A model generated the notes under the pieces. That model was given only the letters and a program-made list of their open reading frames with translations, was not told the DNA's origin and ran no database searches. A DNA stretch of 64,000 nt from an uncultured Acetatifactor sp. Lineage in GTDB: Bacteria > Bacillota > Clostridia > Lachnospirales > Lachnospiraceae. Where the stretch lies: contig CANQEH010000013.1 of NCBI GenBank assembly GCA_947594835.1, forward strand, positions 8,838 through 72,837, written 5' to 3'. Below, piece by piece: positions 5,179-18,129 of the stretch (position 1 is the stretch's first letter; the number at the start of each line of letters is the position of its first letter). The position numbers and the translations under genes are program-made.

Positions 5179-6473
5179 ACCTGCTTTTTTAAGCTGCTCT
5201 CCCTGTAAATGATATCCTCCCGGCTGGGGCCGTTGCTGATCATGGTGATGGGATAGCCGAGCTTCTCCTCGATAAACTCTATATAATTCCGGCAGTTGTG
5301 GGGCAGTTCCTCGTACTTTCTGATGCCCCGGATCTGGCAGTTCCAGCCGGGCAGTTTCTCAAAGACGGGCTTTGCCCTCTCCAGCCTGGTGGTCACAGGG
5401 AAATCGGTGGTCACTTCCCCGTCGATCTCATACCCGACGCAGACAGGGATCTCCTCCAGATACCCCAGCACATCCAGCACCGTAAACGCCACGTCCGTGG
5501 TGCCCTGAAGCCTGCAGCCATACTTAGATGCCACGCAGTCAAACCATCCCACTCTCCTGGGCCGTCCTGTGGTCGCGCCGTACTCGCCGCCGTCGCCGCC
5601 CCTGCGGCGCAGCTCCTCCGCCTCCTCCCCGGACAGCTCGGAGACAAAAGCCCCCGCGCCCACCGCCGAGGAATATGCCTTGCACACCGTGACAATCTGA
5701 CGGATCTCGTAGGGAGGAATCCCCGCGCCGATAGCGCCGTAAGCCGCCAGGGTGGAAGAAGAAGTCACCATGGGGTAGATGCCGTGGTCGGGATCCTTTA
5801 AGGTGCCAAGCTGCCCCTCCAGCAGCACGGTCTTCCCCTCTTTCAGCGCCTGATCCAAAAAGGCGGACACGTCGCACACATAGGGCGCTATCATCTCCCG
5901 ATACCCGTGCAGCGTCTCAAGCAGCTCCTCCGGGACGATCTGGGGCTTGTGGTACAGATGCTCCAGCAGCACGTTTTTCAGCGCGCAGACCCGCTCCACT
6001 TTCTCCCGCAGCGTCTCCTCGTCAAAGAGTTCGCTGACCTGAAAGCCGATCTTGGCATATTTGTCGGAATAAAAGGGAGCGATGCCGGACTTGGTGGAGC
6101 CGAAAGATTTTCCGCCCAGCCTTTCCTCCTCATATTGGTCAAACAGGATGTGATAGGGCATGACGATCTGCGCCCGGTCGGACACCAGTATCTTCGGGGC
6201 AGGCACATCCCGCTCCACGATGGACTGTATTTCCTGCATGAGCTTGGGGATATCCAATGCCACGCCGTTTCCGATCACGCTGGTGATATGCTGGTAAAAC
6301 ACGCCGGAGGGCAGAGTGTGCAGCGCAAACTTGCCGTAGCTGTTCACAATGGTGTGGCCCGCGTTGGCCCCGCCCTGGAAGCGCACCACAATATCCGCTT
6401 CCTGCGCCATCATGTCCGTGATCTTTCCCTTTCCTTCGTCGCCCCAGTTGGCTCCTACGATTGCCTTGACCAT
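5175..6473 (-). CDS. purA: adenylosuccinate synthetase
   Basis: MVKAIVGANWGDEGKGKITD P-loop and full-length 432 aa. GAGGAAATAAG SD, with TTTACT-17-TATACT promoter-like hexamers at about 6515-6545. Confidence 0.95.
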   Translation of the reverse strand: MVKAIVGANWGDEGKGKITDMMAQEADIVVRFQGGANAGHTIVNSYGKFALHTLPSGVFYQHITSVIGNGVALDIPKLMQEIQSIVERDVPAPKILVSDRAQIVMPYHILFDQYEEERLGGKSFGSTKSGIAPFYSDKYAKIGFQVSELFDEETLREKVERVCALKNVLLEHLYHKPQIVPEELLETLHGYREMIAPYVCDVSAFLDQALKEGKTVLLEGQLGTLKDPDHGIYPMVTSSSTLAAYGAIGAGIPPYEIRQIVTVCKAYSSAVGAGAFVSELSGEEAEELRRRGGDGGEYGATTGRPRRVGWFDCVASKYGCRLQGTTDVAFTVLDVLGYLEEIPVCVGYEIDGEVTTDFPVTTRLERAKPVFEKLPGWNCQIRGIRKYEELPHNCRNYIEFIEEKLGYPITMISNGPSREDIIYRESSLKKQV

Positions 6474-6574
6474 CTTATTTCCTCATTTCTGCGCCGTCTA
6501 TCGCGCACAGCGCAATATAAGTATAATATAAAATTCCCCATAAGTAAATCGAAAAATAATCTGAATCAAAGCAT

Positions 6575-6638
6575 CCAAAATTGAAATTTTAAATTCCACT
6601 CTCAAATCCTCTGGTGGAATTTAAAATTTCAATTTTGG
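6575..6638. repeat. perfect 25-bp inverted repeat (CCAAAATTGAAATTTTAAATTCCAC / 14-nt loop / reverse complement)
   Basis: Arms 6575-6599 and 6614-6638 are exact reverse complements. It sits exactly at the GC-rich to AT-rich composition switch upstream of purA. Confidence 0.9.
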
Positions 6639-6663
6639 GCAAGATTTTATTTGCTGTCATATC

Positions 6664-6691
6664 TTGCAAAACTCTGTCACTATGGTAGAAT
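6664..6691 (+). promoter_or_regulatory. sigma-A-type promoter, TTGCAA-16 nt-TGgTAGAAT (extended -10)
   Basis: Hexamers at 6664-6669 and 6686-6691, with TG one nt upstream of the -10. Confidence 0.5.
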
Positions 6692-6782
6692 ATATATGGG
6701 TGTTACCAAAACGGGTAGCGGTTCGCCTTTTGCCAAAATGAGTACATTTTGAGAACTTCCTGTATCGAAGGAGGGGATACAT

Positions 6783-6815
6783 ATGGAAAATACAGTGAAA
6801 GGTAAGTACCATTGA
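6783..6815 (+). CDS. 10-codon leader ORF MENTVKGKYH, stop overlapping the next start (TGATG)
   Basis: AAGGAGG sits 7 nt upstream of the ATG at 6783. TGA 6813-6815 overlaps ATG 6815-6817. Confidence 0.25.
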   Translation: MENTVKGKYH

Positions 6816-6946
6816 TGTTCGGAATGATTTTGGAACTTGTCGGTATGGTAGTGACAGTTATCAGCATCGTCGTCACTACAATCAGTATCCGACAAACCAG
6901 AACAAATAAAAGGCATCAAAAAAGCAACCGCGCCGACCAAAGTTAG
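6815..6946 (+). CDS. 43-aa hydrophobic/basic peptide, candidate type I toxin or small membrane protein
   Basis: MFGMILELVGMVVTVISIVVTTISIRQTRTNKRHQKSNRADQS gives one TM-length hydrophobic stretch and then a basic tail. The stop codon is embedded in an intrinsic terminator. Below the 60-aa track cutoff. Confidence 0.45.
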   Translation: MFGMILELVGMVVTVISIVVTTISIRQTRTNKRHQKSNRADQS

Positions 6947-6957
6947 GTTGCTTTTTT
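6918..6957. terminator. bidirectional intrinsic terminator AAAAAAGCAACC-loop-GGTTGCTTTTTT
   Basis: GCAACC/GGTTGC core extended by A6/T6. The shape serves transcripts from both strands. Confidence 0.7.
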
Positions 6958-7011
6958 GATTTGCAACTATCAACTGAGGCGAACCGTTGCTTTACGGTAA
7001 CACCTTTTCTA
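6918..7011 (-). ncRNA. predicted ~90-nt antisense RNA overlapping the 3' end of the 43-aa ORF
   Basis: Bounded by the minus-strand promoter at 7018-7046 and the shared terminator. No convincing ORF or SD inside. Confidence 0.3.
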
Positions 7012-7017
7012 TGAATT

Positions 7018-7046
7018 ATATTAGCACTGTTCAGCACTTCCGTCAA
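7018..7046 (-). promoter_or_regulatory. sigma-A-type promoter, TTGACG-17 nt-TGcTAATAT (extended -10), firing leftwards
   Basis: The reverse complement of 7041-7046 is TTGACG. The reverse complement of 7018-7023 is TAATAT, preceded by TGc. Confidence 0.5.
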
Positions 7047-7071
7047 CATTTTTTCTCATGCAAAATTTCTA

Positions 7072-7088
7072 CCAAAATTGAAATTTTA
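7072..7088. repeat. third copy (17 nt, direct) of the left arm of the 6575 inverted repeat
   Basis: CCAAAATTGAAATTTTA is identical to 6575-6591. Confidence 0.8.
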
Positions 7089-7302
7089 TTGGTATAAAAA
7101 CAAGCACTACTTATATAAGGAGATATGTTCTTTGCTATATCTCATTGTATAATCTCTATATAGAATAGGGCACCTCCCGTCCCGTCTTTGGTAGTTAACG
7201 CCAGATTTTTTAGGAGCAAAACCAGCATAGATCTCTTCCAAATGCCCATATATTCGGGCTTTTTTTAGCTTAAGATTCTGCGAAACAACAAAGTTCCATG
7301 TA

Positions 7303-8279
7303 TCACTCTTCTAATACCACCGGGCAGCCATCATAAAGCTCATTATCACTATATGCAATGACTCTTTCCGTTGCCGGGAGATTACCCTCTGCTGCTGCAA
7401 GACTATCATTTCTATCCAACAAAGTTACATCTCTCTTTGCAGCTACATAAGTATTTCCCAGGATTCCCTGCCGCTCTTCCAATACATATACAAAGCATTC
7501 CCATTTTCCATGTGCAGTGCATCAGCGGGCAGACAGGCTTGATATGACTTCCCACCCCATTCCAAAGAAAATGTAACTTCAGGCACATATTGTTCTATTG
7601 TCTCAATTTCAACAATACACCTGCATTTTGAATCTCTCTGAGTGCACTCCGTCAACTTTCCCTGCAGAACCATACTCCCCACAGTTACATTCACATCCGT
7701 GCCGAGTAATTTATCCACATTGTCATAATATCCGGAAAACTCACCTATAACCGATATCTCCCCCATTCCAATGGTTACAGCCTCCTCCCCAACACTGACA
7801 ACCCAGCCATCTGCTTTGGCAAAAACACTTCCCTCCTGTTCATGTAACTGTTTCAGCAAATCTATATCTTTTTGCAAAATACTGATGCGGGAGCGCAATA
7901 TTTCTCCGTATTTTTCATTTGCAACCTGAGACAAAAGAAAATAATACTCCAACAGTTTTAGTTCCTTTTCTGCCAGTTCTTCTTCCAGTGAAGCTGCGTT
8001 ATATTGATATAACGCATCTGTGCTTTTTACCCGGTCTCCCTCTTCCACAAGATAAGAATCTATGGATAGCCCCTCCACACAACCAATCTGGGCTGTTTCT
8101 TCAAAGCTGATCTGACCTGTTCCGATAATTTCATGTGTAATATAATCTTTATGGGGATATACAAAACTGACCACAGGTGTATTATGCTCTCTCTGATACC
8201 AAATGTGGATTGTCAGGACAGTCATTACTCCCCAAAACAACATCCCAGCTAATATATAAATCTTTTCCCTTTTTTTCAT
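7303..8279 (-). pseudogene. HlyD-family efflux adaptor (membrane fusion protein), frameshifted near 7482-7490
   Basis: Track ORF 7443..8279 has an N-terminal TM helix, a lipoyl-like segment VEEGDRVKSTDALYQY and a coiled coil. The conserved C-terminal end VYVLEERQGILGNTYVAAKRDVTLLDRNDSLAAAEGNLPATERVIAYSDNELYDGCPVVLEE continues in another frame down to the stop at 7303-7305. Confidence 0.7.
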
Positions 8280-17933: not shown

Positions 17934-18129
17934 CTGCTTCCTTCCGAATCCCGGTGGATTCCACAAACGCATACCTGACGCTCATTATACACCCAAATCA
18001 TGAAAAAAGCTACCGCCGTCCACCCAATGCCCCCCGGCGCCTCTCACACCCCTCCCCCGCCCCTTCCCCTTGCAATTTTTCATCCGGGAGCGTACAATAA
18101 AGGCAAAGAATGCTTCCGGGAGGCATACA

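Follow-up and report, generated by a model that had tools for sequence, protein, structure and literature searches.

In the par locus of the Enterococcus faecalis plasmid pAD1 (fst RNA I/RNA II), a toxin-antitoxin (TA) pair of type I, two convergent promoters face a shared bidirectional intrinsic terminator (PMC7472228). The same arrangement occurs in a cassette at positions 6648-7056 of a 64,000-nucleotide stretch of DNA from an uncultured Acetatifactor sp. of the Lachnospiraceae (GenBank assembly GCA_947594835.1, contig CANQEH010000013.1, positions 8,838 to 72,837 of the forward strand; this whole stretch is hereafter called the window, and its coordinates are used throughout). With somewhat better than even confidence, the region can be read as an intact copy of an undescribed type I TA-like cassette of the Lachnospiraceae, in which a long, translatable mRNA would be closed by an antisense RNA. 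The likeness to par extends to further features (PMC7472228): the Shine-Dalgarno sequence lies in an intramolecular hairpin, the extreme 5' end of the toxin mRNA is sequestered by a helix, and a motif is repeated close to the 5' ends of the two RNAs. In par, RNA-RNA contact starts at complementary terminator loops (PMC7472228), and the terminator loops of the cassette are complementary too. The par repeats, however, are direct in the DNA, so that the two RNAs are complementary at the translation start, whereas those of the cassette are inverted, so that its two predicted RNAs would be alike in this sequence, the complementary stretch being found in the 3' extension of the mRNA itself. Moreover, the Fst peptide has a PXXXG(C) motif and a conserved tryptophan, while the core of the cassette peptide contains neither proline nor tryptophan, and the Fst and Ldr models of Pfam and NCBIfam were not matched by it, permissive E-value cut-offs included. 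The layout of the cassette is closest to that of par/Fst, yet it fails two defining features of that system, an Fst-type peptide and direct repeats.

A different kind of likeness links the cassette to hok/mok/sok of plasmid R1 and aapA1/IsoA1 of Helicobacter pylori. Translation of hok is coupled to that of its leader mok, and in these systems long-range pairing between the 5' and 3' ends decides translatability; in hok and aapA1 this pairing keeps the full-length toxin mRNA inert. The cassette resembles hok/mok in leader coupling and 5'-3' pairing, which is a likeness of working and not of family membership: its peptide matches no Hok model in Pfam or NCBIfam and has no protein similarity to hok or aapA1, and the predicted sign of its switch is opposite to theirs. 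In those systems the overlap of Sok or IsoA1 is with the 5' part of the toxin mRNA. In the cassette, in contrast, the predicted antisense gene lies across the mRNA's 3' end, where it takes in the 3' arm of the long-range helix and leaves the leader uncovered.

Convergent antisense RNAs that overlap the 3' end of the toxin mRNA, as predicted for the cassette, are found in bsrG/SR4 and txpA/RatA of Bacillus subtilis, where the duplex is cleaved by RNase III. These two systems have no leader open reading frame (ORF), their peptides are unrelated to that of the cassette (no family match) and, to our knowledge, no end-to-end helix spanning the terminator has been described for them. According to the account given in PMC6563280, which cites Jahn and Brantl 2013, SR4 binds the 3' end of its mRNA and inhibits translation besides promoting decay. 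In the cassette, too, binding of an RNA at the 3' end would act on the ribosome-binding site.

Clostridial hosts and convergent overlapping genes are shared with the Clostridioides difficile modules CD2517.1/RCd8, CD2907.1/RCd9 and CD0956.2/RCd10 (PMC6563280). Like that of the cassette, the C. difficile peptides are unannotated, have a hydrophobic N-terminus and a positively charged C-terminus, and are encoded in several copies per genome; they measure 50-53 amino acids, and their phage homologs 30-56 (PMC6563280). These modules differ from the cassette in that their hosts are Peptostreptococcaceae, that they lie mostly in prophages or beside CRISPR arrays and that their antisense overlaps are long. 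As far as the peptides are described, the cassette is also set apart by a signature of its own, GIVVTVISIIVTxISI...HQKSNR. In earlier surveys, hits resembling Fst or TxpA were few and came from two species today assigned to the Lachnospiraceae (PMC6563280).

The cassette is best classed as a new family of type I TA-like loci whose regulatory design is a variant one, and as a member of no named family. Its main parts are the following.

6648-7056 (~410 bp): whole conserved cassette (blastn and MAFFT, 25-84 copies)
6664-6691, plus strand: predicted toxin-mRNA promoter, TTGCAA-16 nt-TGgTAGAAT (promoter scan, 9/12 consensus, extended -10)
6783-6815, plus strand: leader ORF MENTVKGKYH, 10 codons, whose TGA (6813-6815) overlaps the peptide ATG (TGATG)
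6815-6946, plus strand: peptide ORF MFGMILELVGMVVTVISIVVTTISIRQTRTNKRHQKSNRADQS, 43 codons, TAG at 6944-6946, one transmembrane-length helix and a basic tail
6915-6960, common to both strands: terminator-like hairpin with A6/U6 flanks, a perfect 15-nt inverted repeat (6915-6929 / 6946-6960)
6915-7010, minus strand: predicted ~95-nt antisense RNA, made up of a 5' stem-loop (7006-6976), a variable spacer and the terminator hairpin
7018-7046, minus strand: predicted antisense-RNA promoter, TTGACG-17 nt-TGcTAATAT (promoter scan, 9/12, extended -10)

In dozens of other genomes, nucleotide identity is 72-91% within ~6648-7056 and the flanking DNA is unrelated (blastn, MAFFT); because the module is conserved while its flanks are not, the layout is beyond chance. 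More than 100 loci in species-representative genomes carry the module, nearly all of them in Lachnospiraceae. These genomes were scanned twice, with the 5' motif and with the terminator core, each scan giving at least 119 stretches. The short 5'-motif pattern also matched many unrelated phyla by chance, and genuine cassettes were picked by their paired inverted motifs and by whole-cassette blastn; the matches listed for the terminator-core pattern were almost exclusively from Lachnospiraceae. Carriers include metagenome-assembled genomes (MAGs) of Acetatifactor, Eisenbergiella, Roseburia-like and Kineothrix bacteria from rabbit, mouse and other guts, together with the isolates Hungatella hathewayi DSM 13479 and H. 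effluvii DSM 24995. That the cassette is widespread, expressed and undescribed is supported, and the preliminary description of the region as a candidate type I TA locus, made from the letters of the window without database searches, is backed in silico. All sequence features that it listed were found again at the positions it gave.

The preliminary description had also pointed out that both predicted transcripts begin alike, as indeed they do: the motif reads GGTGTTACC-N12-GGTTCGCC at 6699-6727 on the plus strand and GGTGTTACC-N10-GGTTCGCC at 7004-6978 on the minus strand. An accompanying remark, that read-through transcripts would pair 5' to 3', turned out to concern the best-supported structural feature of the locus, a covarying 21-bp helix between the two ends of the toxin mRNA. 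It is formed by these segments.

6698-6707, plus strand: 5' arm of helix I, GGGUGUUACC, pairing with 6996-7005 and starting at the predicted first mRNA nucleotide
6719-6729, plus strand: 5' arm of helix II, CGGUUCGCCUU, pairing with 6976-6986
6976-7005, plus strand: 3' arms of helices II and I, downstream of the terminator and complementary to the antisense 5' hairpin

Among 76 distinct copies, on which all helix counts are based, 96.9% of the 1594 cells of the end-to-end helix are standard pairs and compensatory double changes occur in 13 of the 21 pairs. Helix I is paired in 94.7% of cells, with compensatory double changes in 8/10 pairs, and helix II in 98.9%, with compensatory changes in 5/11 pairs. 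The 97 doubly changed cells compare with 19.4 +/- 7.3 in shuffled data, a value of 97 being reached in none of 500 shuffles; when the partner was slid by 1-3 columns as a control, at most 50% of cells were paired and at most 10 were doubly changed. In divergent copies the plus- and minus-strand motifs change together while the spacers between their halves stay different. Thus, GGTGTTACC is replaced in both motifs by GCGCTCC, by GGGCTCCC or by GGGCATTACC, and GGTTCGCC in both motifs by GGTTCACC, GGTTGGCC or GGTTCGTC. The covariation extends to positions that are bulged in the 5' hairpin of either RNA.

The pairs that depart from Watson-Crick rules are unevenly distributed between the strands: 122 cells are G·U when read on the plus strand, against 12 that are A·C (G·U on the minus strand). 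The imbalance persists among the 55 distinct haplotypes (97 plus-strand G·U against 12) and when each state is counted once per column (16 against 6), and it assigns the helix to the plus-strand RNA. The overall pattern fits pairing within a plus-strand RNA, and does not fit gene conversion between DNA repeats, a requirement of the antisense RNA only, or a swap of stems between the two RNAs. On comparative grounds, the covariation indicates that part of the toxin mRNA passes the terminator, to predicted ends at ~7005-7010, and closes on its own 5' end. As the predicted antisense RNA reads the strand opposite to the 3' arm, it is bound to resemble the 5' arm of the mRNA. What is new here beyond another type I TA system is the end-to-end mRNA helix across a terminator, which covariation supports, together with the antisense mimicry of the mRNA 5' end that follows from it.

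Several other pairings were considered and set aside. Covariation at positions that are bulged in the two 5' hairpins cannot be accounted for by an exchange of stems between these hairpins (a duplex of -24.4 kcal/mol). A local hairpin in the 5' motif of the mRNA (GUUACC:GGUAGC) is paired in 78% of cells and is no conserved structure. Pairing in trans as in par, between the antisense 5' end and GGUAAGCAC beside the second ribosome-binding site, is a partial match that is lost in divergent copies, and when the antisense 5' domain was paired with the body of the mRNA in RNAduplex, all duplexes obtained had long loops and were unconvincing. An unbiased all-against-all search for covarying columns was too noisy through shared ancestry.

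The end-to-end helix touches the translation signals of the mRNA. RNAalifold applied to 23 copies returned four elements: the terminator hairpin, two local hairpins of the 5' untranslated region (5'-UTR) and a helix that encloses a purine-rich box of the leader ORF, here called SD2.

6725-6733, plus strand: anti-SD2 segment GCCUUUUGC, paired by RNAalifold with 6795-6803 and overlapping helix II by 5 nt
6734-6751, plus strand: 5'-UTR hairpin CAAAAUG-AGUA-CAUUUUG, 96.7% of cells paired, 3 compensatory pairs
6756-6774, plus strand: leader Shine-Dalgarno hairpin, CUUCC (6756-6760) pairing with GGAGG (6770-6774), 98.4% of cells paired
6795-6803, plus strand: SD2, purine-rich box GUGAAAGGU in the leader ORF, with (nearly) invariant GAAAGG, pairing with 6725-6733

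The leader itself is preceded by AAGGAGGGG, its ATG at 6783 lying 8 nt past the GGAGG core, and the hairpin over this Shine-Dalgarno sequence lacks covariation because both of its sides are conserved. Within the leader, the nucleotides GGAAAAT and GAAAGGT are (nearly) invariant, third-codon positions included, which implies a constraint acting on the RNA. In all variants of the cassette GAAAGGU is followed, at a distance of 7-13 nt, by a possible start codon of the peptide (11 nt in the window), and it probably serves as a second ribosome-binding site, that of the peptide ORF. The other invariant stretch, GGAAAAU in the first codons of the leader (6786-6792), is near-invariant across the 76 copies, among which no conserved pairing partner for it was found.

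In the SD2 helix 92.1% of cells are paired; a compensatory change is seen at one pair (C-G to U-A, in 7 sequences), and many single changes are compatible with wobble pairing. As this helix shares 6725-6729 with the end-to-end helix, the two are mutually exclusive. Partition-function folding of all 76 copies in three states of the mRNA predicts a median unpaired probability of SD2 of 0.03 when the mRNA ends at the terminator, of 0.69 in the long mRNA and again of 0.03 once the last ~95 nt of the long mRNA are blocked, as the antisense RNA would block them. The predicted switch is seen in 57 of the 76 copies. The predicted accessibility of the leader Shine-Dalgarno sequence is nearly unchanged between the mRNA forms (0.33 vs 0.30).

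These features can be combined in a model. A moderate plus-strand promoter would produce an mRNA from ~6698, with the strong Shine-Dalgarno sequence of the leader held in its local hairpin, while a stronger convergent promoter would produce the ~95-nt antisense RNA ending at the shared A6-hairpin-U6 terminator. In an mRNA that stops at the terminator, SD2 would be closed from the start. In the long mRNA, the end-to-end helix would hold the 5' segment away, leaving SD2 open and the peptide translatable. The antisense RNA would be fully complementary to the last ~95 nt of this long form, and its 5' end would copy that of the mRNA. It would probably dock through the complementary terminator loops, as in par (PMC7472228), zip along 6976-7005 and displace the mRNA 5' end, which would then refold onto SD2 and close the ribosome site. 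The resulting ~95-bp duplex would be open to cleavage by RNase III, as in txpA/RatA and the C. difficile pairs (PMC6563280). Ribosomes that translate the leader across SD2 could open the helix for a short time and so be brought to the start of the peptide. Such a strand-displacement switch, in which the antitoxin mimics the mRNA 5' end and read-through of a leaky terminator gates toxin expression, is put forward tentatively. We know of no description of a terminator-read-through strand-displacement switch for any type I system.

Both predicted promoters were placed correctly in the preliminary description, and both, like the terminator core, are conserved across the family at the level of sequence. 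At least 9 of 12 consensus positions are matched by the plus-strand promoter in 56/84 copies, with an extended -10 TG in 74%, and by the minus-strand promoter in 79/84; the -35 element of the latter is TTGAC(G/A) in 68/84. The terminator core is invariant across the family. The view that this hairpin, with its A6 and T6 flanks and the peptide stop codon at the junction of its loop and 3' arm, would serve both directions needs amending in one respect: the hairpin is as described, and the mRNA does not simply end there. In the family alignment its wobble pairs number 38 in the minus-strand reading against 1 in the plus-strand reading, which suggests that it has been selected first as the terminator of the antisense RNA. 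On the plus strand, the pair closing its loop is often C·A. The predicted antisense RNA folds with -31.2 kcal/mol, and the inner stem of its 5' hairpin is 94% paired when read on the minus strand.

Transcription data came from assembled, unstranded metatranscriptome contigs of relatives. When these were mapped on the window, word depth in data set X25 was ~25 over the promoter region 6645-6707, 256-790 over 6729-6959, 74-115 over 6960-7001, 8-23 over 7002-7064 and 0 outside. Data set X26 holds a 251-nt contig identical to the H. hathewayi copy (depth 36); coverage there is zero just beyond the two predicted transcription starts, a pattern that makes genomic DNA contamination unfit as its cause. 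These data support strong expression of relatives inside the predicted boundaries, although unstranded contigs cannot separate strands or show read-through. RNA sequencing contigs from pure cultures of Hungatella were flat, merged with neighbouring genes and uninformative on RNA ends.

The 43-residue peptide of the window has the described makeup, a helix of transmembrane length followed by a basic tail: mean Kyte-Doolittle hydropathy is +2.2 over residues 1-25 and -2.8, with a net charge of +5, over residues 26-43. The conservation and selection that the preliminary description had named as checks are found, in the more than 100 loci given above and in a pooled ratio of nonsynonymous to synonymous polymorphism (pN/pS) of 0.27 over the 23 codons of the membrane segment in 30 distinct copies. 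In the same codons the variable columns number 13, 8 and 23 at codon positions 1, 2 and 3. By this codon signature, the peptide ORF is under purifying selection and is truly translated. The fixed C-terminal HQKSNR has another origin, since the terminator hairpin, whose 5' arm is made of its codons, does not vary at the nucleotide level. The ORF-terminator overlap is not universal in the family, as seen from the copy of H. hathewayi DSM 13479 (L157 4552-4875, minus strand of NZ_CP102274.1), where a 36-amino acid ORF, MMLGIVVGIVGIIVTVISIIVTVISIRHTDKKDRIN, stops just before the hairpin.

The peptide belongs to no named family, as had been surmised. Searches of Pfam, NCBIfam and the PDB with the peptide and 27 relatives returned sub-threshold transmembrane noise only (E-value cut-off of 10 for single peptides and of 1 for the 27-member Pfam scan), and no member exceeded the threshold of any known type I toxin model in Pfam or NCBIfam. 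A word-indexed protein search found a single homolog. The family becomes visible only in an exhaustive HMMER search of 1.84 billion representatives, which gave 234 clusters at E <= 0.001 and 51 at <= 1e-10; nearly all cluster representatives are peptides of 36-59 amino acids sharing the signature (M)xExIxxIVGIVVTVISIIVTxISI(R/I)Q..K-rich..HQKSNR, and none is named beyond "hypothetical protein". Full-text literature searches found no paper describing the family. At the RNA level, Rfam gave no gathering-score match in the whole 64-kb window, and a permissive Rfam scan of 6300-7600 gave chance-level hits only, such as OrzO-P with 25.5 bits where the cut-off is 60.

The leader is present in every copy, and its relation to the peptide ORF varies. 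The 10 codons joined by TGATG to a 43-codon ORF, as first described, are those of the window and two other copies. The rule in the family is different: most copies have a 14-codon leader, MENKVKGKHYWCSE, with an ATGA overlap to a later ATG that starts a 39-amino acid peptide. In divergent copies the leader reads MENxVKGT and stops 1 nt ahead of the peptide ATG, and in a few copies leader and peptide are fused in frame into peptides of 52-54 amino acids, the forms that gene callers most often find. Across all these variants the leader ends at or next to the start codon of the peptide, or is fused to it in frame. Some copies have an extra palindromic insertion of ~20 nt (for example, TGTGCGATACTCGCACA) between the leader Shine-Dalgarno sequence and GGAAAAT (L014 4693-5021; L116 131-462, minus strand; L088 3170-3498, minus strand; L175 4841-5168), which in L014 and L116 fuses a longer N-terminal extension in frame to the peptide.

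A number of observations weigh against the preferred reading, a TA-like cassette whose long, translatable mRNA is closed by the antisense RNA. The SD2 helix shows little covariation, its support being mostly conservation. The window's own copy shows no predicted switch: SD2 is 0.68 unpaired in all three states, because GCCUUUU (6725-6731) also pairs with AAAAGGC at 6908-6914. The latter, in codons of the basic tail, is a perfect complement of the anti-SD2 segment, and the alternative fold is absent from most relatives. The terminator hairpin looks equally able to terminate in both directions, and the long mRNA could be a minor form. The RNA evidence consists of unstranded contigs of relatives, from which RNA ends, antisense RNA and read-through are deduced, and the 5'-3' pairing of hok and aapA1, which makes the mRNA inert, has the opposite sign. 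Indeed, the same cassette and helix could work in that opposite way, with the end-paired long mRNA as a stable, inert store, as in hok/sok and aapA1/IsoA1; 3' trimming or cleavage would remove 6976-7005 to give a translatable, antisense-sensitive form, and the antisense RNA would mainly trigger degradation. This seems fairly unlikely, although the end-to-end helix itself is real and, by sequestering the first nucleotide of the mRNA, would shield it from 5'-dependent decay, as the upstream helix does in par RNA I (PMC7472228), and processing-based activation is common among type I toxins (PMC6563280). Removal or blocking of the 3' arm is predicted to close SD2 (0.03) and not to open it, and the leader Shine-Dalgarno sequence is about equally accessible in both forms, both points being thermodynamic predictions only. 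It is less probable still that the helix serves stability or 3'-end formation only, as end protection or as a second terminator before UUUUC, antisense control acting solely through the ~46-nt terminator-hairpin overlap and RNase III as in txpA/RatA. In nearly all copies a U-rich run does come after the 3' arm, both conservation and complementarity are seen in the terminator loops, and RNase III degradation of the duplex is established for txpA/RatA (PMC6563280). However, the U-rich run doubles as the AT-rich start region of the antisense promoter and hence is no independent evidence, and both the 5-nt overlap of helix II with anti-SD2 in all copies and the near-invariance of SD2 and its partner would be left unexplained.

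Doubt of another kind concerns the peptide and the repeats. Peptide toxicity is inferred only from the design of the peptide and the resemblance of the cassette to type I TA systems, and the neighbours of the cassette are mostly housekeeping genes rather than mobile elements. The peptide could be an ordinary small membrane protein, for example an accessory of a transporter or of a stress response, tuned by a cis-antisense RNA. That many copies lie between housekeeping genes would suit this explanation, as would the fact that the toxin role is argued from analogy and the lack of detected homology to known toxin families. It is nevertheless rather improbable, in view of the multiple, sometimes tandem copies at unrelated sites and the absence of the cassette from orthologous sites, of the layered restraint on translation (sequestration of both ribosome sites, coupling to the leader and an antisense RNA driven by the stronger of the promoters) and of the hydrophobic helix with basic tail that is typical of type I toxins, such as those of C. 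difficile (PMC6563280). Finally, the inverted repeat might act in DNA, as the ends of a miniature transposable element or as protein-binding sites kept alike by gene conversion. The presence of the cassette at many unrelated sites and the three copies of CCAAAATTGAAATTTTA that bracket it in the window could be taken in this sense. Yet the repeats lie ~50 nt inside the conserved unit, away from its ends; target-site duplications are absent from the other copies, and only the window has the AT-rich flanking repeat. The spacers between the repeat halves stay different while the halves co-vary, and the excess of G·U over A·C is expected of a one-strand RNA, not of duplex DNA. A DNA-level role of the repeats is accordingly held to be very improbable.

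The preferred reading, a TA-like cassette with an end-paired mRNA, would have several consequences. The family is abundant, unannotated and highly expressed in gut metatranscriptomes, and its description would fill gaps in the annotation of small proteins and small RNAs. As the cultured type strain H. hathewayi DSM 13479 carries the cassette, it is accessible to experiment. The end-to-end helix model suggests a way for an RNA that binds the 3' end to control a ribosome site lying 200 nt upstream. In addition, a compact 400-bp module could serve for counter-selection or plasmid stabilisation in genetically difficult gut Clostridia, as the C. difficile modules did.

The copy number and surroundings of the cassette vary. 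Several MAGs carry 2 to 4 or more copies on separate contigs, and tandem copies are found at some loci. Tandem or closely spaced duplicates occur at L089 2438-3198, L135 1660-2150, L152 4384-5021 (minus strand) and L136 1149-4231; some second copies are truncated at the 5' end, and that of L015 consists of the terminator and antisense part only. Neighbouring genes are varied and include those of an EamA transporter, an ABC permease, a glycosyltransferase, an amylase and FtsH, with an IS66 transposase once. Searches of plasmid and phage collections gave no cassette match; one IMG/VR contig has a divergent copy. A second core-like match in the window, at 17998, was rejected as chance similarity.

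An exact empty site was sought on both sides of the window's copy, and none was recovered. In genomes that share the 278-amino acid gene of the window (86-93% identity), homology ends at window 7303 and there is no cassette. This position is a synteny breakpoint ~250 bp from the cassette; in the three closest genomes with the 278-amino acid gene (7443-8279), neither purA nor the cassette lies beside it. On the purA side only distant relatives were available, and those sharing purA and the HAD gene have no cassette upstream of purA.

Directly to the left of the cassette, a perfect 25-bp AT-rich palindrome is formed by CCAAAATTGAAATTTTAAATTCCAC and its complement (6575-6599 / 6614-6638), and a third copy of its outer 17 nt lies directly to the right (7062-7088), so that the cassette is bracketed. 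This repeat is found nowhere else in the window nor at other cassette loci, and it may mark the insertion route of the window's copy. Outside the conserved cassette, between it and the 278-amino acid gene, lies a 16-nt imperfect inverted repeat, TTATATAAGGAGATAT/ATATCTCATTGTATAA (7111-7152).

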